This document shows positions 8,165-45,389 of a stretch of DNA of 64,000 nucleotides, piece by piece. Both the position numbers and the translations under genes were made by a program. The notes under the pieces were generated by a model, which worked only from the letters and a program-made list of their open reading frames with translations, was not told the DNA's origin and did not search any database. The stretch is from a virus, in the IMG/VR virus record IMGVR_UViG_3300021168_000026, positions 5,255 through 69,254 of that record; one strand, given 5' to 3'. The first letter of the stretch is position 1, and each line of letters opens with the position of its first letter.

Positions 8165-9936
8165 AAATCCATGTTCTGGGCATTCCCCACACGCAGACCA
8201 ACGAGCTCTTCACCACATGCGCCTTTACGCAGAAGGCCCTGAACCTCTGCAAGATGATGCACCGCCGGGGCCATGAGGTCTACCACTACGGCGTTGAAGG
8301 CAGCGTCGTTGAATGCACCGAGCACATCTCCGTGGTCAACAAGGAAGAGTGGGAAGCGCTCTACCCCCACCCGGGCACCGGCTACTACAACTTGGAGACT
8401 GGCGGGATCTACGCAGCCTACCATGCCAAGTGGGCTCAGAACTGCCACCTAGAGCTGGCCCAACGAGTGGGCAAGCCGATGACGGAGATCATCGCGCTTA
8501 CCTGGGGCGGCACCCAGCGCACCGCGTGCGAGGGCATACAGCAATTCCTCGTTGAATCGGGGATCGGGTACAAGCACTCGTGGAGTGACTTCCGGGTCTA
8601 CGAGAGTTACGCGTGGCTCCATATGCATATGGGCGCGGCCGGTCATTGGGAAGGAGGCAAGTGGTACTGGGCGGTCATCCCCAATGCTTTTGACTTGAAT
8701 AAATTTACCTTCAACGCAAACCGGGGAGAGGACTTCCTCTATCTCGGCAGGCTGAACGCTGATAAGGGTGTAGGGCTTGCGGTGCATGTAGCCAAGGAGG
8801 TTGGCCGGAAGATCACGATCTGCGGCCAAGGTGACCCTACACCTTTTCTCAACGGCAACCCTCATGCGAGTTACTTACCGCCGGTAGGCGTTGAGGATCG
8901 AAGGAGACTCCTTTCCCAAGCCAGGGCAGTGTTCTGCCCTAGCATCTATGTGGAGCCGTTCTGCGGCACCAACGTGGAAGCGCAGCTAAGTGGAGCGCCG
9001 GTCATCACTAGCGACTTCGGGGTGTTTCCGGAGACAGTGGTCCACGGGAAGACGGGCTTCCGCTGCCGTAGTTTCGAGCAGTTCGTCTGGGCTGCCAAGA
9101 ACATTGACAAGATCAGTCCTGTCGATTGCCGCGAATGGGCCGGGGATAATTTCTCGTTGGAGCGTGTCGCCCTGATGTATGAGGAGTTCTTCCAACAAAT
9201 CCTCAACGTCGGCCGACGCGAGGGGTTCTATCTCCCCAACCCCAATCGGACCCAGCTCGATTGGCTAAACAAGGATTGGGATTCAAACGAATTGAATCTC
9301 GATCGAGCCCATGAGCCTCCGCCTGACGGGCCGACCACCGGTGAGCAGAGCGAATGGGAAGAAGCCCAACATTGGGAACGAGGCTGGTGGGGTCTAGAGT
9401 GGGGCCCTCACTGGGATGAAGAACTGAAAAAGCAGGAGACCTACTTCCGCTTGATGGGGATACCTGAAAACCGAGACTTTGGCGCTAAAGAGATTCTCGA
9501 CGTAGGCTGCGGGCCTGTCTCTCTACTCCAGCGTTCAACGCATGGGCCGAGCCGGGGAGTCGATCCCTTGGCCGTCTCGGCCGAAACCCTCAAGCGCTAC
9601 ACCGACGCCAACGTTGAGTTCCTCAACATCAAAGCTGAGGAGATGCCCGAAGACAAGCAGTTTGATGAAATCTGGATGTATAACTGTTTACAGCACACGG
9701 ATGACCCTGACCTGATCCTCCAGAAAATCGCTCGGCTTGGCAAGACGGTGAGAATATTCGAGTGGGTGGATCTCGGCGTCTGCCCCGGTCATCCGCAAAA
9801 TTTGACCGAGTCTATGTTCCTCCGGGTGTTCGGTGGGCCTGACTGGGAGCGCCACATCTGGAACATAGGTGAGCTCCGGGACTTCGGAGGCACGGTCACC
9901 AACAAGTACCTCGCCATCCACGCGACCCGCCGATGA
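8161..9936 (+). CDS. GT-B (GT4-like) glycosyltransferase fused to class I SAM methyltransferase
   Basis: YLGRL..DKG, EPFCG..VEAQLSG.PVI; C-terminal ILDVGCG and FDEI...NCLQH. Confidence 0.85.
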   Translation: MKIHVLGIPHTQTNELFTTCAFTQKALNLCKMMHRRGHEVYHYGVEGSVVECTEHISVVNKEEWEALYPHPGTGYYNLETGGIYAAYHAKWAQNCHLELAQRVGKPMTEIIALTWGGTQRTACEGIQQFLVESGIGYKHSWSDFRVYESYAWLHMHMGAAGHWEGGKWYWAVIPNAFDLNKFTFNANRGEDFLYLGRLNADKGVGLAVHVAKEVGRKITICGQGDPTPFLNGNPHASYLPPVGVEDRRRLLSQARAVFCPSIYVEPFCGTNVEAQLSGAPVITSDFGVFPETVVHGKTGFRCRSFEQFVWAAKNIDKISPVDCREWAGDNFSLERVALMYEEFFQQILNVGRREGFYLPNPNRTQLDWLNKDWDSNELNLDRAHEPPPDGPTTGEQSEWEEAQHWERGWWGLEWGPHWDEELKKQETYFRLMGIPENRDFGAKEILDVGCGPVSLLQRSTHGPSRGVDPLAVSAETLKRYTDANVEFLNIKAEEMPEDKQFDEIWMYNCLQHTDDPDLILQKIARLGKTVRIFEWVDLGVCPGHPQNLTESMFLRVFGGPDWERHIWNIGELRDFGGTVTNKYLAIHATRR

Positions 9937-19654: not shown

Positions 19655-21028
19655 ATGGCGAAACCTGAACGATCAGGGTGGTACCGTCTGCTCTTGCGTG
19701 GACCCAAGGGTGGGCTCAAGCAGTGCTTAGCGAACGCCGTCACAATCCTGTCTCATGATGTGGTCTGGAGTGGGGTGCTCGCCTACGATGAGTTTGCGAA
19801 CGGTCCCATCACCCTCAAGGAGCCGCGGTGGCACCCGGACGACAAGCCTGAGGGGTGCAAGCCGGGGCCCTGGACCGATGCCGATGACCTAAGGCTCTGT
19901 ACGTGGTTCGCTCGGAGCCACAAGCTGACGATTACCCCCCGGACGGCCGGGGAAGCCGTCTGCATAGTAGCTGGTAAGAAAAGAGTACACCCAGTCAGAG
20001 ACTGGCTCAAGTCACTCAAATGGGATGGTAAGAAAAGACTTGACGATTGGCTCATTCGTCTAGGCGGCGCCGAAGATTCATCTTACACCCGCGCTGTCTC
20101 AGCGAATTGGATGATTTCAGCTGTAGCTAGAATATTTGAGCCTGGGTGTCAGGCCGACCACGCGTTGATTTTGGAGGGAGCCCAAGGCGTAGGTAAATCC
20201 TCTTTACTTAGAATACTTGGAGGGGATGAGTGGTTCCTCGAGATGAGTGCCGATCTCTCTAACAAGGATGCGGAGCAAGACCTGTGGTGCAAGTGGATCG
20301 TCGAGCTCTCTGAGTTAGATTCTCTGAGCAGATCAGAGGTCACTCAAGCCAAGGGCTTCATCACCAAGCGTACCCCCCGATTTAGGGCCAGCTATGACCG
20401 GCGCTCCGGCAATTACCTGAGGCAGTGCGTCTTCGGGGGGACCACCAACGCGCGCCAGTACCTGAAGGACGACTCCGGAGCGAGAAGGTTCTGGCCGATC
20501 TTGATCCCCCGGGCCGTCAACCTCGCTGCACTGAGGAAGGAACGAGACCAACTCTGGGCCGAGTCCACCCATCGGTATCAGGCCGGTGAGGAGTGGCACT
20601 TCAAGGACCCGGCTCTCATCAAGGCCGCCGCGGAAGTTGCCGAGGAGCGGAGGCAGCAGGATCCGTGGGAAGAACCGGTACGGCGATGGCTCACGAACCC
20701 GAATCGAGTACGGACGGGGGTGACGACGCACCAATGTTTGGTGGACTGTCTCGGCTTCGAAACGAACCGCCTCGACAGGCGCGAAGAGATAAGAATCGGC
20801 TCGGTTTTGCGTGTTCTCAATTGGGAGCGGAGAAGGGAACGGCTCCCCTCAGGGGGCCTCGGCTACATTTACCGTCCCAAAGAAGACAGGCCGAACATCG
20901 GGAACAGTAGGGTACAGAAGGGAACACGGGACCTCGGGAAATTGGCTCTTGTTCCTAATGTTCCTAATGTTCCCATGCCTACGGGTGTATATAGAAAGCG
21001 TAAGCCCAAGGGGCCTAGGGGTGCATGA
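19655..21028 (+). CDS. VapE/VirE-like P-loop replicative helicase
   Basis: HPVRDWL..L.WDG, Walker A GAQGVGKS, ELSEL, GTTN..YL.D.SG.RRFWP. Confidence 0.88.
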   Translation: MAKPERSGWYRLLLRGPKGGLKQCLANAVTILSHDVVWSGVLAYDEFANGPITLKEPRWHPDDKPEGCKPGPWTDADDLRLCTWFARSHKLTITPRTAGEAVCIVAGKKRVHPVRDWLKSLKWDGKKRLDDWLIRLGGAEDSSYTRAVSANWMISAVARIFEPGCQADHALILEGAQGVGKSSLLRILGGDEWFLEMSADLSNKDAEQDLWCKWIVELSELDSLSRSEVTQAKGFITKRTPRFRASYDRRSGNYLRQCVFGGTTNARQYLKDDSGARRFWPILIPRAVNLAALRKERDQLWAESTHRYQAGEEWHFKDPALIKAAAEVAEERRQQDPWEEPVRRWLTNPNRVRTGVTTHQCLVDCLGFETNRLDRREEIRIGSVLRVLNWERRRERLPSGGLGYIYRPKEDRPNIGNSRVQKGTRDLGKLALVPNVPNVPMPTGVYRKRKPKGPRGA

Positions 21029-22107: not shown

Positions 22108-22896
22108 ATGCCGTTACCCGCAAGTCAGCTAGAGCGTGACCCTTTCCTGCGGCTGCTTTTGCTAGGGGCCCCGAAGGCCGGCAAAAGCACCGCGGCCATC
22201 GCAACTTCACCTGGGCCAGTGAGGGTACTGCTCTGCGAAGATCAGTCAGCTCTTCGTGGAGCTAAGCGTCTGACGAGCAACTTCGACTTCGAGCCGATCG
22301 GCGGCTGGAACTCAATGCAGTCGGCGATGGCCGAGGCTCGCAAAGACGCCGAGGCTGGGAAGATTCGCACAGTAGTCATCGACCCGCTGAGCGACTTTGC
22401 CGATCGCGTCTTGCGGGAGGCCTTCAAGAACAACCTTACCAAGGACGGCAATGAAGACGGCCGCAAGGCCTACCCTGAGTGCACCAAGCGCCTGAAGCAT
22501 CTTGCCGAACAGATTTTCATGCTCCCCTGCCACGCGGTAGTGATCTGCCACTACATGGAGCTCGGTGGCGAGACTGGAGAGGGGATCGAGAAGACTGGGA
22601 AGGGGATTGTACCTTTGCTCCCCGGTCAGGCGCGGGCCGTTATGGCGGCCAAGTTTGTCGACGTCATTTGGATGGATGTCAGGCAGGTCAATGGTAAGTC
22701 AGAGCGGGTGTTCGTGACCGGTCCTGAAGGCGCCTGGGGCCCCGGCTGCCGCTCGCTGAGTGGAACCCACGTACTGCCCGCGGATGTGGGGGAGCTCATC
22801 AAGCTGTTTGAGGAAGACTGGAAGCCCGCCAAGAAGCCTGCGTTGGTGAGACCAAACAACTCAAGGCCGAGCCCTCAACCCCCGGTGCGCCGATGA
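22108..22896 (+). CDS. Sak4-like (AAA_24) ATPase/recombinase
   Basis: GAPKAGKS, TVVID.LS, V.ICH; next to an SSB-like gene. Confidence 0.75.
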   Translation: MPLPASQLERDPFLRLLLLGAPKAGKSTAAIATSPGPVRVLLCEDQSALRGAKRLTSNFDFEPIGGWNSMQSAMAEARKDAEAGKIRTVVIDPLSDFADRVLREAFKNNLTKDGNEDGRKAYPECTKRLKHLAEQIFMLPCHAVVICHYMELGGETGEGIEKTGKGIVPLLPGQARAVMAAKFVDVIWMDVRQVNGKSERVFVTGPEGAWGPGCRSLSGTHVLPADVGELIKLFEEDWKPAKKPALVRPNNSRPSPQPPVRR

Positions 22897-24248: not shown

Positions 24249-24368
24249 ATGATTGACTTTGATCCAAAGAGCCTGGGGGCTAGGTGCAATGAATGCCCGC
24301 TCCGAGGCTCTAAGCCTGTTCCCCCGGCACCCGCTGAAGGCAAACCCAAATTCATCACCTCGACATGA
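24249..24368 (+). pseudogene. Orphaned 5' end of the UDG gene
   Basis: DPKSLGARCNECPLRGSKPVPP..AEGK.KF duplicates the N-terminus of 24880-25893. Confidence 0.75.
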
Positions 24369-24898
24369 ACAACTATAAACCTCGACAAAAGTCGCCTGCA
24401 TACTGGCGCGATATGCCTTTCGAAGACCGATTCTGGGGTCGTGTTCGTAAGGGGCCAGGGTGTTGGGTTTGGTTAGGATCATGCTCCGGAAGAGGGTACG
24501 GTAGTTTATCGTTCGAAGGTAAAAGGAGCGCTAGGGCCCACAGAGTATCGTGGGTACTAGCCAACGGCCCTATACCTGATGGCTTGTTCGTATGCCATAA
24601 GTGCGATAATCCTCCCTGTGTGCGGCTCGACCATCTTTTTTTAGGGACGCACGATGAAAACATGACCGATATGACCGATAAGGGTCGTCGGTTCAATAAT
24701 TTTGCGGTAAACGTCTACCCTCATCCGGGGGAATCGAACGGTTTTGCCAAACTAACAGAGGTTGAGGTTCGTACGATACGGCAGATGTATAGTGGTAGAG
24801 GGGGTTGGACGTTTCAAAAACTAGCCGACAAATTCCACGTTAGCAAAAAACTCATTCTACTTATCGTGCACCGGAGAGCATGGACGCACGTGGAGTAG
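24365..24898 (+). mobile_element. Free-standing HNH homing endonuclease
   Basis: CW.W.G, AHRVSW, VCHKCDNPPCV..HL..GT..EN..D...KGR, C-terminal HTH; AT-richer than flanks. Confidence 0.88.
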
Positions 24899-25893
24899 AC
24901 CCCCGAGAGCTCGGGGCTAAATGTAATGAGTGTCCACTTCGTGGAGCTAAGCCAGTACCGCCATCGTCAGCCGAAGGCAAAACTAGATTCGTGATTATAG
25001 GAGAAAGCCCAGGTAGATTAGAGGTCACTAAGCAAATGCCATTTGTTGGACCTAGCGGCCGGTTGTTGAATAGAGCTCTAGAAAAGGCAGGCCTAGATCG
25101 ATCTGAGGCATTTGTAACTAACGCATTTATTTGCAGACCAGACGATGACAGGCCCGACATCAAGCTCGCCGCCACGTCGTGCTGCGCACCTCGGCTGGCC
25201 AACGAGCTAGCCGCGCTTGGCAAAAAGAAACTGCCCGTCTTAGCTCTAGGCCAGTGGGCAGCGCGGTCCGTCCTGGGCGTCAAGACGATCATGAAGACGC
25301 GCGGGTTCGTCTGGGAGACACCGGCTATTGAGGAGGCCAAGCTCCTCTCGGTGAGGAAGAACATCGCTAAGCTCAGGGCCTCGGTGCGAGCCAAACCGAC
25401 CGCCAAGGCCAAGGATAACCTCACCAAGGCCAAGCGCGCTCTTTATTTGCTAGAGGCTAGGGCTACCTACGCCGGTAGGACCGTCATCCCGAGCATCCAC
25501 CCGGCCTTCATCCTGCGCGGCGCTGATGGGTGGTATCCGGTGATGATCACCGACTTCAAGCGGTTTCGTCACTTGCTTGACGGCAAGTTGAAGTTGGAGG
25601 ATGACGTCTCCTACATTGTCGTATCCTCGGTAAAAGATATCAAGCGGGAACTGGCCAAGCTTGATCGGGAGGTGGTCGTAGACGTCGAGACAGGTGGTCC
25701 TGATGCGCTCAACGATGAGTTGAAGTGCGTGGGGGTCGGAGACCATATCTCCGGGCGCCCGGTTGTGATGATCTGGCCCTGGAAAAGAAGTCTAGGGCCC
25801 GCGCTTCGCCAGGCGTTGAGGAAGCATGTTGTCATCACACACTTTGGGCCGCAATTCGATCACATTGTACTTCACCGAGAGGGAGCTTGGTGA
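24880..25893 (+). CDS. Family 4-like uracil-DNA glycosylase fused to the N-terminal half of a 3'-5' exonuclease
   Basis: C..C, IGESPG..E, PFVGPSG, TNA..CRP, HPAFILR; then ExoI DVET and ExoII-like H..QFD. Confidence 0.85.
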   Translation: MDARGVDPRELGAKCNECPLRGAKPVPPSSAEGKTRFVIIGESPGRLEVTKQMPFVGPSGRLLNRALEKAGLDRSEAFVTNAFICRPDDDRPDIKLAATSCCAPRLANELAALGKKKLPVLALGQWAARSVLGVKTIMKTRGFVWETPAIEEAKLLSVRKNIAKLRASVRAKPTAKAKDNLTKAKRALYLLEARATYAGRTVIPSIHPAFILRGADGWYPVMITDFKRFRHLLDGKLKLEDDVSYIVVSSVKDIKRELAKLDREVVVDVETGGPDALNDELKCVGVGDHISGRPVVMIWPWKRSLGPALRQALRKHVVITHFGPQFDHIVLHREGAW

Positions 25894-27461
25894 TGGACCA
25901 GTTATGGGAGGACACACTATTAGCGCACCACTGTTTTGCTTCGCATCTACCAAAGTCTCTCTCACATGTAGCTTCAGTCTATTGTAACGCGGAACCCTGG
26001 AAGATACTTCACGGCAAGAGTGCAGGTGAAGAGAAGGGCGAGGCTCCCTGGGATAGCGACGACGTCTCCAATCTTCTTCTTTATTGTAGCAAAGATGTAA
26101 AATTGGATGCGCTTGCGTGGCAGCGCATGAAGCCAGACTTGGCTCCAGAGCGCAAAGTCTATGAGTCTGACAAACGGATGGCCCTTCTCTGCCGCGGTAT
26201 GACCGAGGTCGGCATCGGTTTCGATACCGCCAAGCGCGATGAGCTCGCGAGTCACCTTAGAGCCCGTAAGAGGGGTCTGCTTGGGGAGATGCGCCAGCTC
26301 GTTGGCCCGAACTTTCACCCAGCCCGGCTGGGGGATGTGCGGCGGGCCTTGTTCGTCACCTTCCGCGGGCCGATGCTCTACCCCACCAAGACGGGCCTGG
26401 CTTCAACTTCAAATCTGACCTTGGAGGCCGTGAAGGTCCTCGATACCCGCGCTGGCCACCTCGCTGACCTTCTTCTCCGATGGCGCGCGTGCGCCAAGAC
26501 GCTCGGCTCCTACGTCGAGAACTACGAGCCGGGGAGGGATGGCCGGATCCACGCGCAGTGGAAGCTCGGGCCTGTGACGGGCAGGTTGGCGGGGCCACTC
26601 ATGACCCTGCCTCGATATGGGGATGATTGGGAGACGCACGTCCGAGGGATGTACGTCGCCGACAAGAGCAAGCGTAGATCCAAGCGCCCTCGGATTGTGG
26701 CGCAGATTCATGACGCTGCGATCATCGAGTTCGACGGCCAGCTTTTCTACTACGACCTCTCGCAGTGCGAGGCCCGGTTGGCGGCCTACTTCTCCGGCGA
26801 CGAGAACCTCATCAAGGCGTGCGAGAAAGACATCCATACCGAGAACGCCAAGGTCGTATTTGCTGACATACCCGAGGCGATGGCCAAACTCAATAAGGCC
26901 TACGAGCTTTCCCCGTTTCTCGATAACCACGGTAAGCCTCTGAAGTGGAAGGCCGTCACCGGCAAAAATGGTGGCTGCAAAGACGAGCGCGACATCACGA
27001 AGAACTGCGGATTTTGTGTCTGGTATGAAGGTACGGCGGAGCGCGCTCTAGCTACCCTCAAGGCTGCGGGCAAACGGGCCACCCTGGCCGCGTGCGAGGA
27101 GTTCGTCCGCCGCTTCCACTCCCGGTACACTCGTTACTACGAGTTTATCGATGAGAATGAGGCTTTCTGCAAGCAGCACGGCTACCTGCGGAGCGTCATC
27201 TTGGGTAGGATCAGCTGGCTCGGGTGGCATGCCAAGCGAACTGACATTTCCAACCGGCCTATCCAGGGTGGTATCGCGGATATACACAACGATCGCCTAC
27301 CGCGGATCGAGGACCGGCTGAAGGGATGTAAGAGCGTTGACCGGCTTGAAAAACTGGTCAGGGATGTCTGGGCCGAACCTATCAAAGTGCCGCACAACGG
27401 CCTTGAATTCGTGATGCCGATTGACTTCAAGACTGGAGAAAGGTGGAGTGACTTCGGATGA
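25893..27461 (+). CDS. polA: Family A DNA polymerase (C-terminal exo half plus polymerase) with relocated motif C
   Basis: DTLL..H, ExoIII YCSKD, TGRL, motif A DLSQCEAR, DIH, motif B R...K...F...Y, N.PIQG..AD, G..W; QIHD precedes motif A. Confidence 0.9.
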   Translation: MDQLWEDTLLAHHCFASHLPKSLSHVASVYCNAEPWKILHGKSAGEEKGEAPWDSDDVSNLLLYCSKDVKLDALAWQRMKPDLAPERKVYESDKRMALLCRGMTEVGIGFDTAKRDELASHLRARKRGLLGEMRQLVGPNFHPARLGDVRRALFVTFRGPMLYPTKTGLASTSNLTLEAVKVLDTRAGHLADLLLRWRACAKTLGSYVENYEPGRDGRIHAQWKLGPVTGRLAGPLMTLPRYGDDWETHVRGMYVADKSKRRSKRPRIVAQIHDAAIIEFDGQLFYYDLSQCEARLAAYFSGDENLIKACEKDIHTENAKVVFADIPEAMAKLNKAYELSPFLDNHGKPLKWKAVTGKNGGCKDERDITKNCGFCVWYEGTAERALATLKAAGKRATLAACEEFVRRFHSRYTRYYEFIDENEAFCKQHGYLRSVILGRISWLGWHAKRTDISNRPIQGGIADIHNDRLPRIEDRLKGCKSVDRLEKLVRDVWAEPIKVPHNGLEFVMPIDFKTGERWSDFG

Positions 27462-27670
27462 GTAGGGTGCGCATCTGGCATATATGGGTCGATGAGTGGG
27501 CGGCGACCGGCGAGCGAGGCGGTAAGATGTTTGTAGCCAGCGTCCGGGCGACTACCTTCAGAGCCGCGTGCCGGAAGCACTACGCGGGTAACCTAGACTA
27601 CAACGTCAAGCACAACACTTACTGGGGGATCAGGCTGTACAGCGGAAGGGCTCCAGAATGGGCAAGCTAA
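27458..27670 (+). CDS. Hypothetical protein
   Basis: ATGA-coupled ORF. Confidence 0.5.
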   Translation: MSRVRIWHIWVDEWAATGERGGKMFVASVRATTFRAACRKHYAGNLDYNVKHNTYWGIRLYSGRAPEWAS

Positions 27671-27957
27671 CACCAGAAGAAAAGACGATGCTCGAAGAGC
27701 TCCTAGGCTTCTCCCTAGAGAAGGAAGACGCGCGCATCGACGAGAAGGCATTCCAACAGATGCTCGACCGAGGCTTCGCGCTGACTGAGAAGCAGGCCAA
27801 GTGGGTCAGGGGCGTCTACGATCGGGTATTCGATAAACCAAGCTATGAGAACCTATTCAGTGCGGGGAAGGTGCCTCTCGGCAAGCCGGTAGAGACCCCA
27901 GCGGTCCTTAGAAACCTGCCCAAGAAGCCGCCCAGCCGACCCCCGGGGGCGCTATGA
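27658..27957 (+). CDS. Hypothetical protein
   Basis: LTEKQ..W motif, tiled ORF. Confidence 0.55.
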   Translation: MGKLTPEEKTMLEELLGFSLEKEDARIDEKAFQQMLDRGFALTEKQAKWVRGVYDRVFDKPSYENLFSAGKVPLGKPVETPAVLRNLPKKPPSRPPGAL

Positions 27958-28884: not shown

Positions 28885-29073
28885 ATGGCTGGGCCTATCA
28901 TCAGCCCTAATGCCTGTGCTGTTCTCGAGTGCACGGCTGACGGCCGTACGGTTGGCCGCTGTTGGTTCAATGTCGTCGACGGCAAGTGCCCTCGGCACGG
29001 AGATGTTACTGCTGTGCAGGCCAACTATCGAGCGACAGGGCGGCTTACTCACGAGAGTGAGTTAGATCGATGA
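28885..29073 (+). CDS. Small Cys/His protein
   Basis: Tiled ORF, CPRHG. Confidence 0.45.
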   Translation: MAGPIISPNACAVLECTADGRTVGRCWFNVVDGKCPRHGDVTAVQANYRATGRLTHESELDR

Positions 29074-30458
29074 GTGCCTCGACTGACAAGAAGATTTCCG
29101 AGAAGGACCTCTCCCCCGATCAACTAGAGGTGTTTGAGGCGATACAAGACTGGGTATCTTCGCCTCACTCTGATTTTATAGCTCCGGGCGGCGCGTCCTC
29201 TGGAGAGCTAGGTTTTCGCGATTCGCAGGTCCAGAGCGGGCTACTGACAGTCGGGGGCTACGCAGGCACTGGAAAATCAACCCTGCTCGGGGTCCTTGCA
29301 GCCTCAACCGACCTCCTCGTCGCGTATGTTACCTACACCGGTCGTGCAGCGAGTGTACTCAATCGAAAGCTCCGAGCTTCAGGTGTAGAGACGACGACTC
29401 TCCTCCGCCGCGCCGATGAAGACGCTGAGCGGGGCCTGGAGAGTTACTTCGACCCGAGCCTGAAGGCCTCCAGCGGCCCCCCGTTATGCACGACGATCCA
29501 CCGGCTGCTGTACCGGCCGGTGATTGACCCCAAGACCGAGGAGCTACGGGGTTGGGTCAAGCGCTCTAGGTTGGATCGAGACTACGACCTCATCGTGATC
29601 GACGAAGGATCCATGGTGGGTGATGAGATCTTGCAAGACCTACAGCGATGGGGGGTGCCGATTCTAGCGGTTGGCGACCATGGCCAGCTCCCCCCGGTCA
29701 TGGCCTCGGGGGATTTGATGCAGAACCCTGATCTAAAGCTCGAGAAGATTCATCGGCAAGCAGAAAAATCGCCTATCATCGCACTATCAAGGCACATCCG
29801 TGAGGGCGGCAAGATCCGAGACTTCAAGGGCCACCTCTTGATCCCCGGGGCACCGGAGGCCGCCATCGACTTCCGAGCCAAGCAAGACCTGCCCGAAGCT
29901 CTCATCGATGCCTATATCACGTCGTGCCCGCTCTCGATACTCGACGTCGGGGTGCTCTGTTGGACCAACCGAACTAGATGCAAACTCAATGGCGCGGCTC
30001 GCAAAGCCTTGGAGTACGCGGGGCCCCCGCGCAAAGAGGAACCGGTCATCTGCCTCAAGAACAAGCCTCCAGTCTACAACGGCATGCGCGGCCTTCTAAC
30101 CGAGGACTCCAAGCTGAGAGAAGGCCAGCCCTGGCTTCTTGATGCCTCGGTGGCGTTTCCCGATGAAGGGCTGCCGGCCAGCCCCAAGACGCTCTGCGCA
30201 CCCCAGTTCTTCCGAGAGAAGACGTTTGCCTCGGTGGAGGAGCTCCAAGAGCGGGGAGTTTCGGTCTATTCAATGTCGAGCGCCGGGGAAATGTACGATA
30301 TGGGCTATGCGATGACTGTTCACAAATCGCAGGGGTCTCAGTTTTCTCATGTCTTGTTATATGTAGACCGAGCTGAGAACCCCTGGGAAGAGGAATCAAG
30401 GAGATATTTTTACACGGCCGTAACCCGAGCAAGCGAGAGGCTGACAATCCTACAATGA
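29070..30458 (+). CDS. SF1 RecD/Dda-like helicase
   Basis: GYAGTGKS, TIHRLLY, VIDEGSMV, GDHGQLPPV, HRQA, TVHKSQGS, YTAVTRA. Confidence 0.92.
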   Translation: MSASTDKKISEKDLSPDQLEVFEAIQDWVSSPHSDFIAPGGASSGELGFRDSQVQSGLLTVGGYAGTGKSTLLGVLAASTDLLVAYVTYTGRAASVLNRKLRASGVETTTLLRRADEDAERGLESYFDPSLKASSGPPLCTTIHRLLYRPVIDPKTEELRGWVKRSRLDRDYDLIVIDEGSMVGDEILQDLQRWGVPILAVGDHGQLPPVMASGDLMQNPDLKLEKIHRQAEKSPIIALSRHIREGGKIRDFKGHLLIPGAPEAAIDFRAKQDLPEALIDAYITSCPLSILDVGVLCWTNRTRCKLNGAARKALEYAGPPRKEEPVICLKNKPPVYNGMRGLLTEDSKLREGQPWLLDASVAFPDEGLPASPKTLCAPQFFREKTFASVEELQERGVSVYSMSSAGEMYDMGYAMTVHKSQGSQFSHVLLYVDRAENPWEEESRRYFYTAVTRASERLTILQ

Positions 30459-36131: not shown

Positions 36132-37250
36132 ATGCCTTTCACCACCGCAACGCTCGTCTACACCGTCATCCAAGGGGGCGGCGCTTCCCTCAACGATCTC
36201 AACACGCTGATGGCCTTACCGCAGGTCCCTCAAGATGTGCTGGCCCAGATCGGGGCCCGGTTGAATTCAGATGTGACCGTCAGCGGCCTGACGGGCGTGA
36301 CTCGTACGATCGGGCTGTCACTCGCCCCCAGCCCTACCGGCGCCGCAACGGCGATACGGCAACCTAACGGGGGAGCGATCATAGCGGCTATCGTGACAGC
36401 CCCCGGCAAGGGGTACAGCGCCATTCCTCTCATCACTACGCCTCCCCCGGACAAGACCGAGCCCGGAGAGCCGAGAGGCTTCCGAGGGGCTAAGTTCCTC
36501 GGCAGGCTTGATGTCCAAGACGTCGCCGTGGTCAACGCGGGAGACGGGTATGGCGGATCAGTCCAAGCTCGGTTTGTTGGAGGGTTGCAGCCGCCCCGGG
36601 TGGACCCAGCGACCGGTGTCTTGAATGCGCAGTCGTGCGTTCAGGGTATGACGATCGTCGCCCAAGGCCGAGGCTACTCCTCGTTTGCGCAAGTGCAGTT
36701 TGAGGGCTCTACTGTTGTGGGGGGAAGATTACCTCGAGCAGGGTTGGTGCTCGATAGCAAGGGCCGAGTCATAAAGCTCAACATCGTTGACTCCGGTCAG
36801 GGGATGCTCGAAGTGCCGAGCGCGTTCGTTTGGGACCCCGGCCCGGCCAAGGACGGCAAAAACGGTGGCAAGGGTGCCGTCTTGTCAGTGCAGATGGGCA
36901 TCGGTACCGTAGCTACGGCAACCGTCGGAGTGGCAGCGGGTAGTATTACCGGTCTGACTATCGTCAACGCTGGGGGCCCTTACACCGCGATGCCCCAGAT
37001 CATCCTGAGTGATACGAGTGGAACACCCGCGGTTGTAGTGCCGCTGATGGGCCTCCACTCGATCGAAGTGCTCGACCCCGGTGAAGGCTACGCCATTGAC
37101 CCGGCTATTACCGTGACGAGCGCCTTCAATGACTACTACGCCGGGTCGACTGCGGCCCAAGCGGCCCTCGCGTTCGGTGACTTGATGAAGACGTTGCTGG
37201 AGGTTTCGGTGAAATCCCCGGTTGCCGCCGCGACTCCTATCGTCACTTGA
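36132..37250 (+). CDS. Putative virion protein with repeated (I/V)xxxGxGY beta modules
   Basis: About six G.GY-type units. Confidence 0.6.
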   Translation: MPFTTATLVYTVIQGGGASLNDLNTLMALPQVPQDVLAQIGARLNSDVTVSGLTGVTRTIGLSLAPSPTGAATAIRQPNGGAIIAAIVTAPGKGYSAIPLITTPPPDKTEPGEPRGFRGAKFLGRLDVQDVAVVNAGDGYGGSVQARFVGGLQPPRVDPATGVLNAQSCVQGMTIVAQGRGYSSFAQVQFEGSTVVGGRLPRAGLVLDSKGRVIKLNIVDSGQGMLEVPSAFVWDPGPAKDGKNGGKGAVLSVQMGIGTVATATVGVAAGSITGLTIVNAGGPYTAMPQIILSDTSGTPAVVVPLMGLHSIEVLDPGEGYAIDPAITVTSAFNDYYAGSTAAQAALAFGDLMKTLLEVSVKSPVAAATPIVT

Positions 37251-37261
37251 GAGGAGACTCT

Positions 37262-38746
37262 ATGGCTCGAAAGCCCCAAGAGCTCGACGAGCTCGATGAT
37301 GATCTCGATGAGGATGAGTCTGAGGAAGAGGAGCTTGAAGAGGAAAATGAGCCGCAGGCCCAGATAGCTCCTCAGCCGGCCCCCGCGGTATTACCTCAGG
37401 TCAGCGCGCCGACGCAGCGGCCTGCCCAAGCCCACCCTCGGCGGAAGACCCGAGCCAAGGCCAACGGTCTAGGCGCAGTGGTTGGGGATGTTGCCTGGAA
37501 AAATAAAGATGCAGACCTCATGCTGGGCGAAATGCTTGAGCGTCTGAATCGCGATGGTCACTCCCCCTATGAGCTCTCAATTGGAGTCCTCGACCTCAAT
37601 CCGTCTGGCGGGGGGCAAGCTGTCAAATTGGGCTCGTTCGAGATGGCCTCGGTGGTCGGCGACCAATCTCTCTCCCCCGGTGATGCTCTGACAAGAAAGG
37701 TGGAGGACGACTTCCATCTCGCGTCGGGCAAGCTTGGCGGAGGTCTCTACGAGCTGCGGTTCATGTGGAAGGTGAACTCCCAGGTCTACGGTCGAGGGCG
37801 ACTCAGCGTACCGCCGCGAGACCAGCTTCTGCGGATGCGTGCGAGCGCGATGCAGCAAGGCCAGCCCCAGCCTGGGTTTGGTCAACCTTTTGATCCATGG
37901 GGTAGACCAGCACAACCCCCGCAGGGATTCGGCAGCCCGCCTCCAGGGTGGGGTTATGGTCCTCCCCCTACTTGGGGCCAGCCTCCTCCTTACTACTCCC
38001 CGCAGCAGATGCCTCAGGCCCCCCAGGGGATGAATCCTGACACCAAGCACCTCGTCGATACGCTGATCAATCAGCTCAACGAGACGCGCAACGAGCTCGC
38101 GCAGATGCGCAAGGAGCCACCCCCGGCACCCGTTGTAGCGCCACCCTCGGTGGGAGTTGGTGCTCCACCCCAGGCTAGCTTGGAGGAGACGGTGACACGC
38201 GCGGTCTCAGCGGCGATGGGCGCACTCCTACCTCACCTGAGGCCCCAGCAATCCCAAAGCAGCTTGGAGGGTGACCTCACCAAGGCAACGAGCGCGATGC
38301 TGGGAGGATTGATGCAGGCCGCGGTCAAGCGGCTCGGCCAAAACCTCCAGCAAGGTATCTCCCAAGGTCTAGGGGCCCCGGTAGAGATGCCGGCACCCGA
38401 AGACCCCGAAACAGAGCTAGTACCTCCCCCCGATCCTTCCGACGATCTTCCGTTCAAGCAAGTGAAGCTCGAAGCCACATGGCCCGACGGCCGCAACGTG
38501 TATTACCCAGCGAAAAAAGAAGACGGGTCCACCGATTGGCTAGGGGCGCTCTTCACTAACCCTTGGGTGACTGAGAAGCTCGTCGACAATGTCAACAACA
38601 TGGTGGGCAGCGTCGCCGACGCGGTCAAGCGCGTGGGGGTTGCCGGCCCGCACATCGTGCACCACACGCCCAAGGCGGCTCAGGATGCGACTCCTCAGCC
38701 CGAGGCACCCAAGCCGGGGCTAGGATCAGGCGGCTGGGATGAGTAG
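37262..38746 (+). CDS. Acidic, Pro/Gln-rich protein, possible scaffold/assembly factor
   Basis: Poly-acidic N-terminus, PQ-rich middle, repeated G[LFV]G motifs. Confidence 0.6.
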   Translation: MARKPQELDELDDDLDEDESEEEELEEENEPQAQIAPQPAPAVLPQVSAPTQRPAQAHPRRKTRAKANGLGAVVGDVAWKNKDADLMLGEMLERLNRDGHSPYELSIGVLDLNPSGGGQAVKLGSFEMASVVGDQSLSPGDALTRKVEDDFHLASGKLGGGLYELRFMWKVNSQVYGRGRLSVPPRDQLLRMRASAMQQGQPQPGFGQPFDPWGRPAQPPQGFGSPPPGWGYGPPPTWGQPPPYYSPQQMPQAPQGMNPDTKHLVDTLINQLNETRNELAQMRKEPPPAPVVAPPSVGVGAPPQASLEETVTRAVSAAMGALLPHLRPQQSQSSLEGDLTKATSAMLGGLMQAAVKRLGQNLQQGISQGLGAPVEMPAPEDPETELVPPPDPSDDLPFKQVKLEATWPDGRNVYYPAKKEDGSTDWLGALFTNPWVTEKLVDNVNNMVGSVADAVKRVGVAGPHIVHHTPKAAQDATPQPEAPKPGLGSGGWDE

Positions 38747-38776
38747 AAGCTAGCCTTTCATGCTAGGCTTCATCGC

Positions 38777-40249
38777 GTGGCTCAGCTCAACTGGCAGCTC
38801 TCCCCTCGGCCAAGAAGGAAGCTAGGGCTCGGAGAGGGTATCCCATTCGAGCAGTGGGTCCAAGATCCATCCTCACAGGCTGCCCAGGCGTGGGATCAAG
38901 TCCAGGCTCAGCTAGTCGCTGAAGGAGCCCCCTCGGATGCACTGACTGCTGCCAAGGGCGCGTTTGCCGATGCGATCAATCAGGCGACCATCGGCCTCAA
39001 TATCCCCGTCGAGGAGGCGATCAACAACGCCAAGTCGTACGTACTGACGGGCCAGACGATCTTGGGGTACGTCAAGACGGTTCAGGGGTTGGTCAATGAG
39101 GCCCAGGGTATCCACGACGCTCAGACAGCCCTAGCCTTCACCGGGACCCTCATCGGCACTACAGCGACCATCGCCACAGCTGCTGGCGCCGTCTCGGCGG
39201 GTGTCGGGGCCGCGATCGTCGCCGCCGCGGGTGCGATCATTGCGGTACTCGAGGAGCTCCTCGGCCCGGGTAAGCCCCCCGCCGGCACCCAAGTGTGCGG
39301 TGGGTTCTACTGCCAGAACGCCGACTTTACCGTGGGTCCTGTTGGGTTAGGTGGGTGCGTCTGCGGTTGGGGGACCGCCATCGCGCCGGGCAGCGCCGAT
39401 TGGCGGAGCTTCCCCGACTACTCCAAGGCCGAGGACAAAATCTGGTTCACGTGGAGCGCCTCGGATGTTGACTTCGACTGGGGCAAGTCGGCGAACGTCG
39501 CTCACTACAAGAGCCGAGCTGGGTATCGACCGATCGATGCAGCCTTCCAAGCTTACAATCACCTGGAAGCTGACTTCGGCTTCCCGTTTGGTGGGAAGTT
39601 CCAACCGCTGCCCTACATCCTGAACGAGTTCAACATGGCGTGGATCAGTGCGTGGAAGGCCAACGCTGCCTACGCGCTGAACGGCCTCAAGCCCCAAGAC
39701 GATGGGGCTGTTCTCATGCGGCTACTCCGAACGTGGAACCAGGCCCACGAGGACTCCTCGGTTTTTCTCTTAGCCCCAGTGCCGGTGACACCGATCCAGG
39801 CCGCGTTGCCCGTCGTCAACCCATACAACCCCGCGACGACTACCTTCCGGCCGCCATTCACGACCTACTTGGAGATGATCGCGAACAAGATCACCGCGAG
39901 CACTAATGATCCCTCCCTCGTCAGAGATGGGAAGCTACTGATCCATACTGGCGCTAGGAAGACCCCGCCGGTGGCCTCGGTGGGTGGCGGCGGCACACAG
40001 CCGTATTACGGGGGCGGCGGTGACAAGGGCAGCACTACACCAACAGCGAGTGGCTCGGGAAGTAGCGCTGCGGCGACGGTAGCCAAGACTGCCGGGGGAG
40101 TGGGGCTAGTCACGGTGCTCGGTATCGGCGCCTTCGCGCTCGTCAAGCACGTAGCCTTCGCCAAGGCCGCCGAGAAGCTCTACGATCTCTCAATCGGCCG
40201 AGGGGTAAAGGTAGCCGCTAAGGCCTATCGCAAAGCGCGGCGCAAGTGA
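38777..40249 (+). CDS. Membrane-associated putative virion protein
   Basis: Internal Ala/Gly hydrophobic hairpin, C-terminal TM and basic tail. Confidence 0.6.
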   Translation: MAQLNWQLSPRPRRKLGLGEGIPFEQWVQDPSSQAAQAWDQVQAQLVAEGAPSDALTAAKGAFADAINQATIGLNIPVEEAINNAKSYVLTGQTILGYVKTVQGLVNEAQGIHDAQTALAFTGTLIGTTATIATAAGAVSAGVGAAIVAAAGAIIAVLEELLGPGKPPAGTQVCGGFYCQNADFTVGPVGLGGCVCGWGTAIAPGSADWRSFPDYSKAEDKIWFTWSASDVDFDWGKSANVAHYKSRAGYRPIDAAFQAYNHLEADFGFPFGGKFQPLPYILNEFNMAWISAWKANAAYALNGLKPQDDGAVLMRLLRTWNQAHEDSSVFLLAPVPVTPIQAALPVVNPYNPATTTFRPPFTTYLEMIANKITASTNDPSLVRDGKLLIHTGARKTPPVASVGGGGTQPYYGGGGDKGSTTPTASGSGSSAAATVAKTAGGVGLVTVLGIGAFALVKHVAFAKAAEKLYDLSIGRGVKVAAKAYRKARRK

Positions 40250-40659
40250 GCTGGCAAGAGCTCCCGCAAGGCCAGACTTTCACACTGCAACCGGGGATGC
40301 TCTACTCGGTTACGGCCAGCGTGAAGCAAACCCATACCCGAGCCGATCTGGTCAACTTCATCCAAGACCAGGGGCTGGTATTACACGAGCTCCAGGACCC
40401 CGCGGCTGGTCAAGCAGCACCAGGGTATCGAGTAGTGGCCATGCAGGCACAAGCTACTCGAGCCACTCAGATTCCCTGGGCCGTGCCCTGGTACTTGCCC
40501 GGAGATAGCTCGACTTTGCTCCACGTCTGGGCCTCACCCCCAGAAAACGGCAACTTGCAGGTCAACACTCAGCCCGGGCCAACCGTCTGGCCGTGGCTCG
40601 TTGCCGTACCTGCTTTGGCCGGCCTAGGCTACCTCTGGTGGAAACGCCGAGGGAGATAG
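40246..40659 (+). CDS. C-terminally anchored membrane protein
   Basis: WPWLVAVPALAGLGYLWW followed by KRRGR. Confidence 0.65.
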   Translation: MSWQELPQGQTFTLQPGMLYSVTASVKQTHTRADLVNFIQDQGLVLHELQDPAAGQAAPGYRVVAMQAQATRATQIPWAVPWYLPGDSSTLLHVWASPPENGNLQVNTQPGPTVWPWLVAVPALAGLGYLWWKRRGR

Positions 40660-40675
40660 TGTAAGATCCTGTCGC

Positions 40676-41098
40676 ATGGCACTTTCTGTCAAGGCCAAGA
40701 AGCGACTCGGCATCGCCGGGGCCGTCACCACGGGGGTAGCGGCCATTTCCGCGGTGCTGTTTTGGCCCAAGAAGGCCTCGGCTGCCCCAGGAGGGTCAAC
40801 ACCGACTTCAGGTCAGCCTCCTCAAGTAACTCCACCTGAGCCACCGCCAGCTCCGCCAATAGTGCCAAGCTCTGGTAATCAGCCCCCGGCCGATTGCCAA
40901 TGGGTGCCCTCGACGAGCGATCCGGCGGCGGTAACGCTCGCGATGGATATCTCCTACCACGACGATCCGATAGCTTGGGTCGATGGCCACACGTATGGCC
41001 CTGTCCAGATCAACGGAAACTGGTGGAGATTCATCATGGGCTGGGGCATCAACACCGGGAAACGTACCAAGGACGTTAGAGCGGAGAAGTGTCAGTGA
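40676..41098 (+). CDS. N-anchored membrane protein (paralog array)
   Basis: Basic N-terminus, TM, Pro linker. Confidence 0.65.
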   Translation: MALSVKAKKRLGIAGAVTTGVAAISAVLFWPKKASAAPGGSTPTSGQPPQVTPPEPPPAPPIVPSSGNQPPADCQWVPSTSDPAAVTLAMDISYHDDPIAWVDGHTYGPVQINGNWWRFIMGWGINTGKRTKDVRAEKCQ

Positions 41099-41472
41099 AA
41101 AAGTCCAGTGAGAGAGCTTTCTGGATCGGTGGGCTGATCGCCGCCGCGGGAGCTACTGGTGTAGCTGTCTACTTCATCGCCAAGCCCAAAGCCCCGGCAC
41201 CACCTCCGACGACCCCGGTAATACCGCCATCACCTCTGATGGTACAGCTCCCTAACACCTCAGACGTGACTCTTCCTAGCGGTCAGACGCTAATTATCGC
41301 GTCGCCGAACGGCACGCTCATCACAAATCTTCAGGTAGATACCAAACCGCAGGTGCCTGTGATCGTCGGGGGCCAAGGCAACGCGACGGTGGGGCAGCAC
41401 CGGGTGTTTGTTACCTGGACTGACACCAGCGGCGCGTCGACCACGAACACGTTTCTCCTGACGGTGACCTGA
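41089..41472 (+). CDS. N-anchored membrane protein (paralog array)
   Basis: KK....FWIGG...G...Y...KPK; start may be 41095. Confidence 0.7.
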   Translation: MSVKKSSERAFWIGGLIAAAGATGVAVYFIAKPKAPAPPPTTPVIPPSPLMVQLPNTSDVTLPSGQTLIIASPNGTLITNLQVDTKPQVPVIVGGQGNATVGQHRVFVTWTDTSGASTTNTFLLTVT

Positions 41473-41831
41473 TGAAAAAGACAACGAAGCGGGTGCTCTG
41501 GATCGGTGGTCTCGCCGCTGGCGCCGTCGGTGTTGGGGTAGCGGTGCATTACCTCTCCAAGCCCAAGCCACCGTCACTGGCCGGGACCAACGTCAACCTC
41601 CAGATGCCGCCCATCGCAAACAACGCGAGCATCCCTCGCGGGACTAGCCTTACCCTCTTGCCTCCCAGCGGCGGCAAAATCACCGCTATGGCAGTCAATG
41701 GTTCTCCGCAGCCTGGACCCGTCATCGTTGGCGGCCAGAACGCCCCGGTTGGTAGCAACCCGGTTGTCGTAAATTGGACCGACGCCAACGGCGCGCCGGG
41801 GGTCGGTAACTTCAACCTCCAGGTGACGTGA
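41472..41831 (+). CDS. N-anchored membrane protein, paralog of the preceding gene
   Basis: Shared PVIVGGQ, V.WTD..GA, F.L.VT. Confidence 0.7.
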   Translation: MKKTTKRVLWIGGLAAGAVGVGVAVHYLSKPKPPSLAGTNVNLQMPPIANNASIPRGTSLTLLPPSGGKITAMAVNGSPQPGPVIVGGQNAPVGSNPVVVNWTDANGAPGVGNFNLQVT

Positions 41832-42184
41832 TGAAGAAGTCGACCAAAGAGCTTCTCTGTATTACTGGGGCTGTTGCCGGTGTCGGGGCTGTCGCTGGCC
41901 TCATCATCTACCTCGTCAACAAGCCCAAAACCCCAGCAACCGTGGGAACAGGCGCCCTCCAACCGCAGTACGCGGCTCGACAAGCGCAGGTGTTCGCGAC
42001 CATCACGCCGACCGGAGCAAGGTCTCAAGCGACACAGGCTACCCAGGCTGCACCGCATCTCTACAACCCATGGTGGGCCCCACCCTCAGTCCCACAGGTT
42101 CCTTGGGTAGGCCGAGGTGGTGGCGCGGCGAGTGGAAGCTTGAATCCGGCAGCGCCTCCCGGGCCTATCCGTAGTCGACTCTGA
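41828..42184 (+). CDS. N-anchored membrane protein (paralog array)
   Basis: KKSTK..TM..Y..KPK. Confidence 0.65.
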   Translation: MMKKSTKELLCITGAVAGVGAVAGLIIYLVNKPKTPATVGTGALQPQYAARQAQVFATITPTGARSQATQATQAAPHLYNPWWAPPSVPQVPWVGRGGGAASGSLNPAAPPGPIRSRL

Positions 42185-42185
42185 C

Positions 42186-42884
42186 GTGAAGCCTGAGGTC
42201 CTCTGGCTGGGCGGGCTAGTCGTAGGAGCCGGAGCCGTAGTCGGCGCGGTAGCCTTGGCCAGCAAACCGGTCGGGGCTAAACCAAGCTCCCCGGTAGCAG
42301 CCTCCCTGCCAAAAGCCCCGCTGCCGAACCTTGCACCAGCGGTTGCTTTCACGAGACCCACGAACTTCATAACGAGGGCCGCGCCCTCATTCTATCGAGG
42401 CGGGCTATTGCCTCCCCCGCAATCCCAACCGATAACTCCAGCGCCGGTTCCCTTAGCTGGAGACTCGCTCCAGCAACATAACCTCCAAGTGGTCAACGCC
42501 TACCGCTCTCGGCTAGGAGTGGCACCGCTGATATTAGATATAAGACTTAGCTCTTTCGCCATGGCTGGCTCCCAGCAGCTCTCTCAAGACCACATACCTC
42601 ACCAGCATATTCGCTCAGCCGTAGCCGCGGGGACCCTATTCAACCCAGAAAACGGTTTCGCTCAAGAAGCCGGGGAAAATCAAGGCAGCCCCGTCGGATG
42701 GCCGCCGGAAGACGAGACCCAACAAATCGATGAAGCTCTCGCGATGATGTTTGCCGAGGGCCCCGGCCAAGGGGAAGAGCACGGTCACTACATGAACATC
42801 GTCAACCCCAGATTTACCCGGCTTGGGGTAGGCTTGCTGCTTGTTGGTGGTAGGTTGTACATGACCAACGATTTCTCGAGCTAA
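42186..42884 (+). CDS. Membrane-anchored CAP/SCP-domain protein
   Basis: VN.YR...G..PL, GEN, GH..NI......LGVG, Y.T.DF. Confidence 0.8.
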   Translation: MKPEVLWLGGLVVGAGAVVGAVALASKPVGAKPSSPVAASLPKAPLPNLAPAVAFTRPTNFITRAAPSFYRGGLLPPPQSQPITPAPVPLAGDSLQQHNLQVVNAYRSRLGVAPLILDIRLSSFAMAGSQQLSQDHIPHQHIRSAVAAGTLFNPENGFAQEAGENQGSPVGWPPEDETQQIDEALAMMFAEGPGQGEEHGHYMNIVNPRFTRLGVGLLLVGGRLYMTNDFSS

Positions 42885-42886
42885 CG

Positions 42887-43480
42887 ATGAAGCAATCCAC
42901 CAAAGATGCTCTCTGGCTCGGCGGGGTTGTCACGGGCGTTGGCGCTCTCGCTGGAACCATCGTCTATATGGCCGGCAAACCTGCCTCGGCTCCAACAAGC
43001 ACTGGCGACAGCGCTGGGGCCAAGAACCCCAATGCCTCAGCGCTAGCCCCAACATCAACCCCATCAACGAACCCACCTGCCGCCAACCTCGTCGCGCCCG
43101 GGCCTCCGCCAAGCCAGGTGCCGACTAGTATTCCGAGCCCCCAGGGGCCATCGTTCCCAACGGCAGGCTTCTTCCCCGCCGATCAGTCGGCCATCACTGA
43201 GCCAACTGTCGCTCTCGTTGGAGGCCGTCGCTACAACGTCACTTACTCGGCGACCAACCCCAACAACCCCTTCGAGACGTCTTGGCTAGATAGCTACTCG
43301 AGCTGGAGGGGCCCCGATGGCGGTATCGTCAAGGGGGTTAGCGGGGGTTCCAGGAGCTTCAGCTACCAGTTCATCGCATCTAGGTCGATCAACCTGCCGT
43401 TGAGCGCTTTTCTCACCCCCATCGCGGCTCATGTCAACGGCCTCGGTATCCAAGGGAGCCCCTCCGTAGTGCCGCTTTGA
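42887..43480 (+). CDS. N-anchored membrane protein (paralog array)
   Basis: KQSTK.ALWLGG...Y...KP. Confidence 0.65.
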   Translation: MKQSTKDALWLGGVVTGVGALAGTIVYMAGKPASAPTSTGDSAGAKNPNASALAPTSTPSTNPPAANLVAPGPPPSQVPTSIPSPQGPSFPTAGFFPADQSAITEPTVALVGGRRYNVTYSATNPNNPFETSWLDSYSSWRGPDGGIVKGVSGGSRSFSYQFIASRSINLPLSAFLTPIAAHVNGLGIQGSPSVVPL

Positions 43481-43506
43481 GCCACTGTGGTAGGATGTAA
43501 GCCACG

Positions 43507-44919: not shown

Positions 44920-45389
44920 TGTTGATCTGCAAGGGTAATACAGTTTCCTGCCTCGTCGAGGGCCGACGAGTGCGTTGCGCTGGGTCGATGCTGCACGATC
45001 CGACAGGCCGGCATTGGCCCAAACACTCACTGCTCATCGGGAAGTTCCAGAAGGGTTCTGAGGAGCCTACGGAAGAGCAATATCGCGGTGCGCCAAGAGA
45101 CTACCTCGGCCGAGGCTATCGTGCGCGGGTGGGGTCAGTTGACCTACCGCCGAAAAGACTCTCTGAGTGGGAAGAAATCGGGCCTGTAGCGGAGATCTTC
45201 TACACCCGGCCGGGTACGAGCAACCCGGGGAGGTTCAGGCATGCGTTCAATAAGCCACACGGCGTTTCTCTCGTTGTTTTCCCGTTCAAAGGTAAGGGGA
45301 AGGCGACTTTGAGGAAGTGCGGGCGGTTTCATCGGCTCGACATGTCACGCGGTGCCTTGATCGATTCGAGAGGATTGGTCTGGCCCTAG
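44919..45389 (+). CDS. Basic hypothetical protein
   Basis: TAATG-coupled ORF in the virion module. Confidence 0.55.
   Translation: MLICKGNTVSCLVEGRRVRCAGSMLHDPTGRHWPKHSLLIGKFQKGSEEPTEEQYRGAPRDYLGRGYRARVGSVDLPPKRLSEWEEIGPVAEIFYTRPGTSNPGRFRHAFNKPHGVSLVVFPFKGKGKATLRKCGRFHRLDMSRGALIDSRGLVWP

Follow-up and report, generated by a model that had tools for sequence, protein, structure and literature searches.

A viral family A DNA polymerase in which the motif C hairpin appears to have moved ahead of motif A

In a 64,000-nucleotide (nt) stretch of DNA from a virus (hereafter the window), we found an open reading frame (ORF) for a family A DNA polymerase whose palm motifs follow each other in the order C-A-B. 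The window comprises bases 5255-69254 of the 69,254-base linear IMG/VR record IMGVR_UViG_3300021168_000026, which is 92% complete according to CheckV and whose sequencing runs are labelled as soil metagenome, with no RNA run among those listed as containing it. The ORF (25893..27461, plus strand; positions refer to the window unless stated otherwise) is intact in translation and encodes a protein of 522 amino acids (aa), P0001. We consider it likely, with a probability of roughly 80%, that the β-hairpin carrying motif C was relocated from its usual place to a position directly before motif A in a working family A polymerase, for which a normal active site would be expected. What would be new here is the order of the motifs in an otherwise known kind of enzyme, whose profile match, predicted fold and catalytic residues are those of a family A DNA polymerase.

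Assignment to family A rested first on profile searches. P0001 matched Pfam PF00476 (DNA_pol_A) with 84.5 bits (cut-off 34.3, E 9.3e-24), and the same match was obtained in the genome search. Among the Pfam families listed to E = 1, only DNA_pol_A exceeded its cut-off and no family of RNA-dependent RNA polymerases (RdRPs) was present. The N-terminal part of the protein is the C-terminal portion of a 3'-5' exonuclease domain (EDTLLAHH, YCSKD), after which come thumb, palm and fingers domains of the family A type.

The linear order of the catalytic motifs in P0001 is C (D274), A (D288) and B (residues 366-378), rather than A-B-C. The ordinary strand that precedes motif A in this family (pre-A strand), HVRGMYVA, is located at residues 249-256 (26637..26660, plus strand, as are all features of this gene) and aligns with R.R..Y(V/I) of all family members. 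It is followed by a cross-over linker, DKSKRRSKRP (residues 257-266; 26661..26690), whose length and sequence vary among the permuted members, and then by the putative relocated motif C hairpin, RIVAQIHDAAIIEF (residues 267-280; 26691..26732), in which the catalytic D274 (26712-26714) occupies the HD turn; the motif C 13-mer RIVAQIHDAAIIE corresponds to residues 267-279 (26691-26729). A two-residue turn, D281 G282, is followed by QLFYYDLSQCEAR (residues 283-295; 26733..26777 including the turn), which comprises the motif A strand and the first part of its helix and contains the motif A string YDLSQCEAR (residues 287-295; 26751-26777) and the catalytic D288 (26754-26756), so that 14 residues separate the motif C Asp from the motif A Asp. 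Further downstream are motif B (the O-helix), RDITKNCGFCVWY (residues 366-378; 26988..27026), with R366, K370, F374 and Y378, and NRPIQGGIAD (residues 454-463; 27252..27281), with N454 and Q458, in the conserved helix ahead of the canonical motif C site. At the canonical site itself (27303..27359), RIEDRLKG (residues 471-478) abuts CKSVDRLEKLV (residues 479-489) and no hairpin is present. The Pfam match ends at position 323 of the 381 positions of the hidden Markov model, which is residue 479, exactly the vacated site. An earlier note, made from the letters of the window and a list of its ORFs, had drawn attention to this arrangement; all of its strings and coordinates (hairpin, motif A, motif B and NRPIQGGIAD) were right on translation and string location, its description of a clean absence at the canonical site agrees with the gap against canonical relatives, and the DNA_pol_A comparison that it had suggested gave the early end of the match together with an insert ahead of motif A in the family alignments.

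Three family alignments located the difference from the canonical relatives at two places. Between the last two palm helices the canonical relatives carry 'LP.GA..VAQIHDAAI.EVP', where P0001 has a gap. Before motif A, P0001 and its nearest relatives have 20-24 extra residues; the canonical relatives are gapped there and pass from the pre-A strand through a turn of 3-4 residues to the motif A strand. The segment before motif A is best regarded as the relocated motif C hairpin and not as a chance look-alike, because the same 13-mer occurs at the usual place in relatives of canonical order: the hairpin at the C-terminal site of P0110, ARIVAQIHDAAIIECP, is identical to the 13-mer of P0001 at 13 of 13 positions, and that of P0015 reads VRIVAQIHDAAIFEAP. 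Such likeness is far beyond chance. It should be noted that, in a phmmer comparison with Taq, residues 268-290 are aligned at equal spacing to the segment that immediately precedes motif A of Taq, as would be expected if this segment were simply the ordinary Pol I strand preceding motif A and if motif C had been deleted without relocation. We regard that explanation as very improbable. The true pre-A strand is HVRGMYVA, which is aligned to the corresponding strand of every canonical member, and the additional residues are found only in proteins that lack the hairpin at the C-terminal site; moreover, the segment is identical to canonical-site hairpins and is built by AlphaFold2 as two extra strands.

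The C-A-B order is shared by other proteins. Two homologue searches, one that found ∼85 close homologues among 5.8 billion proteins and one that returned 113 proteins at E <= 1e-30 among 1.84 billion representatives, contributed to a collection of 238 proteins, 163 of which could be classified by regular expression. Fifteen of these had the C-A-B order (P0001, P0003-P0010, P0012-P0014, P0016, P0103 and P0104) and 148 had the A-B-C order, and hairpins at both sites were found in none of the 163. The permuted proteins from the search of 5.8 billion came from JGI, ENA and Logan assemblies. Two fragments, P0192 and P0193, are without the hairpin at the C-terminal site and are N-terminally truncated, so that their pre-A region is not covered. 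Within IMG/VR, another locus (L003) encodes a polymerase with the same C-A-B order that is 97% identical to P0001 in protein and 88.2% identical in DNA. At more distant IMG/VR PolA loci (L030-L082), a hairpin upstream of motif A was detected by regular expression in 0 of 53. Thus, the order described in the earlier note is real, shared and conserved, and the metagenomic homologues that it had proposed to look for do exist.

Since the window is a metagenome assembly, a chimeric contig, a local rearrangement or a gene-calling error has to be considered as a source of the unusual order. A separately assembled Logan contig (23,969 nt; run X1, which may be the source sample) matches positions 25500-27800 with 0 differences at a depth of 36.8, and a 251-nt contig from another study (run X2) spans nt 26471-26721 and with them the upstream junction of the insert; contig cover of the vacated site (nt 27303-27359) comes from X1 only, the contigs of X2 and X3 not reaching it. 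The concern about misassembly voiced in the earlier note was thereby answered by contigs that match the window. Misassembly is excluded because the C-A-B order recurs in proteins from several repositories and in an IMG/VR virus that is 88% identical, and with the same order in 13 further proteins we attach practically no weight to an artefact.

Conservation of the moved element was then compared with that of the rest of the enzyme. In all 15 permuted proteins AQ[IV]HDA is invariant and the spacing between the motif C Asp and the motif A Asp is 14 residues; these proteins are otherwise 46-67% identical to P0001 in the alignment. In an alignment of 93 sequences that included bacterial Pol I, nine residues were invariant (R231, D288, D313, R366, K370, Y378, R439, N454 and Q458) and F374 was conserved in at least 90%. 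The genes for P0001 and the L003 polymerase differ at 184 nucleotides and 16 amino acids, with 0.64 synonymous substitutions per site (dS), 0.025 nonsynonymous substitutions per site (dN) and a dN/dS of 0.039; within the 24 codons of the hairpin and the motif A strand, all eight nucleotide differences are synonymous. These values indicate that the gene is under strong purifying selection, and we infer from the conservation and from the dN/dS of 0.039 that the protein would be catalytically active in DNA-templated DNA synthesis.

The motif C of P0001 reads HDA and not HDE. The earlier note had read this correctly and had listed it together with the permutation; the reading stands, and the feature turned out not to be special to P0001. 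In the 148 canonical-position hairpins the residue after the motif C Asp is Ala in 102, Ser in 29 and Glu in 14, and all inspected Glu cases are bacterial Pol I matches. HDA is thus a clade-wide rule that is unrelated to the permutation. This matters for the possibility that P0001 is a dead or repurposed polymerase-like protein that survives as a scaffold, an exonuclease partner or a DNA-binding factor, to which both the empty canonical motif C site and the HDA motif would lend themselves. We think such a role unlikely. Canonical members have HDA equally, all other catalytic residues are invariant, and the hairpin string with its fixed 14-residue spacing has been kept in all 15 diverged proteins; the low dN/dS, with only synonymous changes in the hairpin, also speaks against decay. 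In addition, the models for family B (PF00136) and DnaE (PF07733) polymerases had no match anywhere in the 92%-complete virus record. A functional, topologically rewired polymerase, as the earlier note had concluded, is therefore the best reading, on the strength of the purifying selection, the invariant catalytic residues and the hairpin that AlphaFold2 places ahead of the motif A strand.

Structures were predicted by AlphaFold2 with the 93-sequence alignment, and secondary structure was assigned by DSSP. The model of P0001 had a mean predicted local distance difference test score (pLDDT) of 94.1 and a predicted template modelling score (pTM) of 0.90; the block 261-270, within and just after the cross-over linker, scored 86, below its neighbours. 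DSSP assigned a strand to residues 254-255 of HVRGMYVA, followed by strands at 267-272, 275-280 (with H273-D274 in the turn between them) and 283-289 (with D288), and then by the helix of motif A (292-301). Three residues connect the helices 449-478 and 482-494 at the old site. P0011, the canonical sibling, was modelled in the same way (pLDDT 94.5); it has its motif A strand (274-281) straight after the pre-A strand, and its C-terminal part consists of a helix (441-466), two strands (473-478 and 481-487) and a helix (488-502), with the hairpin between the last two helices. The two models thus present the same predicted elements in a different order. From the strand register, with a two-residue turn, D288 of P0001 would lie opposite A275 and next to D274. 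Compared with the large fragments of Taq, Bst and Klenow polymerases, the P0001 model gave VIA Z scores of 24-25 and root-mean-square deviations (rmsd) of 2.4-3.4 Å over 412-447 aligned residues; for the Taq large fragment (3po4_A) the values were Z 25.4, 2.5 Å and 425 residues. Foldseek matched the model to Bst Pol I with an E of 1.5e-17 and a TMq of 0.73, and each of the closest solved structures was a DNA Pol I, theta or apicoplast enzyme.

On the basis of these results, we propose the following mechanism. P0001 belongs to a large uncharacterised group of UDG-exonuclease-PolA enzymes, in one sub-lineage of which the hairpin would have moved. A β-hairpin of ∼17 residues with the motif C Asp, formerly located between the last two palm helices, would have been transferred to the turn immediately before the motif A strand. 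The chain would then run through the pre-A strand, the flexible cross-over linker, the first hairpin strand, the HD turn, the second hairpin strand, the two-residue turn and the motif A strand, so that the three catalytic strands form a simple meander. D274 of motif C and D288 of motif A would come to lie next to each other, the arrangement of canonical Pol I, and the helices at the old site would be joined directly. The active site would keep the same three-dimensional shape with a different chain connectivity, and the enzyme should therefore work as a normal two-metal polymerase.

Several points weigh against this interpretation. First, the permuted form is rare, being present at 1 of 27 family loci in IMG/VR (L003). 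Second, the second carboxylate of motif C is lacking (HDA), equally so in the canonical members of the clade. Third, the side-by-side placement of the two Asp residues is derived from the DSSP register, and the meander built by AlphaFold2 is not fully independent evidence, because the program was trained on Pol I structures and the alignment held canonical relatives. Finally, the polymerase chain is separate from the chain that carries the UDG domain and the N-terminal part of the exonuclease, and it would have to assemble with the latter.

P0001 can be compared with several kinds of known or related systems. With the canonical family A polymerases Taq, Bst and Klenow it shares the fold, PF00476, the motif A Asp, the R/K/F/Y of motif B, the N..Q helix and the H-D hairpin. 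It is 20-23% identical to them and differs in having C-A-B rather than A-B-C order, Ala rather than Glu after the motif C Asp, a two-residue turn from the hairpin to the motif A strand, and a direct helix-helix link at the old site. Much closer are the canonical UDG-exo-PolA members of its own clade (P0011, P0015, P0110 and ∼145 more; 35-63% identity), which have the same hairpin sequence, HDA and domain set, whereas their hairpin is located between the last two palm helices with the flanks LP.GA ... EVP, and a turn of 3-4 residues precedes motif A. By its domain set P0001 also falls within the UDG-PolA type; in the UDG-PolAs described (N4-like cluster 17 and SPO1-type), a family-4 UDG precedes the exonuclease and polymerase domains (Czernecki et al. 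2023; PMC10201439). The passages found there mention only UDG fusion and, in T7-like phages, an exonuclease/polymerase split; the chain described here is split inside the exonuclease domain. In that reclassification of PolA the string 'permut' has 0 occurrences, and the same passages give no change of motif order. A tblastn search of P0001 against 50,697 GenBank phage records found no close relative, the best matches being 21-27% identical; at E <= 1e-5 no N4-like record was among the matches listed, the N4 sequence itself not having been compared directly.

A further comparison is with the permuted RdRPs of Birnaviridae and Permutotetraviridae. The RdRP of the permutotetravirus TaV has the motif C hairpin (β6-β7) followed by the motif A strand (β8), with canonical active-site geometry (PMC4666646). 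As in P0001, motif C lies upstream of motif A in these enzymes and the hairpin comes directly before the motif A strand; they are unrelated in sequence, RNA-dependent, and have GDD rather than HD. The likeness is a topological analogy and not membership. A full-text literature search for permuted palms returned RNA-dependent polymerases only, in agreement with the earlier note, which knew of no described DNA polymerase with this order.

Other kinds of variation were observed in and around the polymerase domain of this clade. An insertion in the fingers, ELSPFLD..GK.LKWKAV...GGCK (26880-26978; residues ∼330-362), is modelled as two short strands (339-343 and 349-351); it is common to most permuted proteins and the canonical P0011, and absent from the permuted P0103 and the canonical P0015 and P0017. 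In P0018, P0021, P0106, P0107, P0131, P0135 and other members of canonical order, motif C has Y-A-Y-D or Y-H-Y-D in place of Q-I-H-D, and motif A is preceded by a Cys-rich insert, which represents a second kind of active-site variation in the clade. The polymerase gene of L003 is interrupted by a 353-residue insert (L003 5351-6409) in the conserved S-N|x-P-I-Q-G-G helix, that is, at the NRPIQGGIAD site of P0001. This insert starts with Cys, ends with Asn followed by Thr and contains two LAGLIDADG-like strings recognised by eye; it matched no Pfam family at E <= 0.01 and had no similarity to the intein-bearing P0083. From its position, its termini and these strings, it is probably intein-like.

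The history of the motif order was studied with a full tree of 14 permuted and 37 hand-picked (of 148) canonical sequences, from which both hairpin regions had been removed, and with separate trees of the N-terminal and C-terminal halves of the gene. P0012 (truncated) was in no tree, and P0016 (partial) and P0107 (long branch) were omitted from the half-gene trees. At least four changes of motif-order state were needed on the full tree. The half-gene trees conflicted strongly. In the N-terminal half, P0013, P0014 and P0104 were placed inside a group of 21 rows that was otherwise canonical (branch value 97), and in the C-terminal half all 13 permuted rows together with the canonical P0011, P0015 and P0017 formed one group (branch value 100); P0004, P0005 and P0006 switched partners between the two. 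Forcing the 16-row group of the C-terminal half onto the N-terminal half was rejected (p-AU 0.0009). The polymerase genes of this clade are thus mosaics, and recombination has carried the permuted C-terminal half from one lineage to another. Because of the same conflict, single-gene PolA phylogenies of these viruses are unreliable.

These results leave room for two accounts of how often the order changed. According to one of them, the order arose once and was never switched repeatedly, and the discordance of the trees reflects recombination between co-circulating canonical and permuted alleles. The mosaic genes, above all the different placement of P0013, P0014 and P0104 in the two halves, the rejection of the 16 rows as a group in the N-terminal half and the changing partners of P0004, P0005 and P0006 are all compatible with it, and a clade of 'permuted plus P0011' was not rejected in the C-terminal half (p 0.33). 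On the other hand, the permuted rows alone as one clade in the C-terminal half, which a single origin would suggest, were rejected (p-AU 0.001). The canonical P0011 is also close to the permuted P0008 in both half-gene trees (75-78% identical in each, 72% over the whole alignment) and shares with it the fingers insertion of the clade, and the permuted P0103 groups in both halves with the canonical P0015 and P0017, without that insertion. At least two local switches or two-patch conversions would still be needed. We rate a single origin as somewhat less likely than not.

The sister contrasts of P0011 and P0103 may be true switches or two-patch conversions. The hairpin of P0011 has typical canonical flanks (LPRGA ... 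EVP), which speaks for a canonical allele that P0011 retained or regained and against a return jump of the hairpin. A route through an intermediate with two copies is plausible; no such form was present among the 163 classifiable proteins. The competing account is that the order of the palm motifs is labile, the hairpin having jumped or having been exchanged as two patches at least 2-4 times in one viral PolA family, with both topologies fully active and interchangeable and with the same rewiring achieved independently in the RdRPs of RNA viruses. For this broader claim as a whole we see the chances as evenly balanced. In the main reading proposed above, the trait is shuffled among viruses by intragenic recombination and has changed its state more than once, the trees showing at least two to four switches of order.

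The genomic setting of the polymerase gene is that of a replication module. It lies directly downstream of an ORF of 337 aa, P0002 (24880..25893, plus strand; Pfam PF03167, 74 bits), which encodes a family-4 UDG domain and the N-terminal portion of the 3'-5' exonuclease domain (DVETGG, HFGPQFD); the stop of P0002 and the start of P0001 share one base (TGATG). An ORF for an HNH_3 homing-type endonuclease (24365-24898) overlaps the start of the UDG ORF by 19 bases. The module around the polymerase also contains genes for a VapE-like primase/helicase (19655-21028), an AAA_24 ATPase (22108-22896) and a Dda-like helicase (29070-30458). In this context, P0001 probably serves as the replicative polymerase for an uncultured soil virus with a genome of ∼69 kb.

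The split between the two chains falls inside the exonuclease domain (window 24880-25931; L003 2680-3995), and in L003 an ORF of 140 aa without a Pfam family lies between the two halves. UDG, exonuclease and polymerase are fused in one chain in P0008, P0013 and P0014, so that the permuted proteins include both fused and split forms. Many family members of ∼500-550 aa begin just upstream of the same EDTL motif, which suggests that the split site is recurrent or inherited, perhaps left by a mobile gene. Elsewhere in the window, we identified an integrase gene (59205-60251) and an ORF of 591 aa (8161-9936) with domains of both a group-1 glycosyltransferase and a class I methyltransferase. No PHROG family was found at E <= 0.001 for five large ORFs (37247-38746, 38777-40249, 43507-44919, 45399-46958 and 47012-48409), and the presumed structural region (37247-48409) is essentially unrecognisable by sequence.

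For DNA-dependent DNA polymerases, the A-B-C order of palm motifs has been taken as an invariable hallmark, and the profiles by which they are found and classified incorporate it. A conserved and selected family A enzyme with C-A-B order would indicate that, in DNA polymerases as well as in birnavirus-type RdRPs, a two-metal active site can withstand non-circular permutation of the central sheet. In virome surveys, filters based on motif order would wrongly label such enzymes as truncated or inactive. Canonical and permuted siblings as close as P0011 and P0008 (72-76% identical) represent a natural system for studying how chain connectivity affects folding, catalysis and fidelity, and, if the order is indeed labile, this pair would be a ready-made experiment on connectivity versus folding, fidelity and speed. 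These siblings could also guide polymerase engineering, for example of split or permuted designs.

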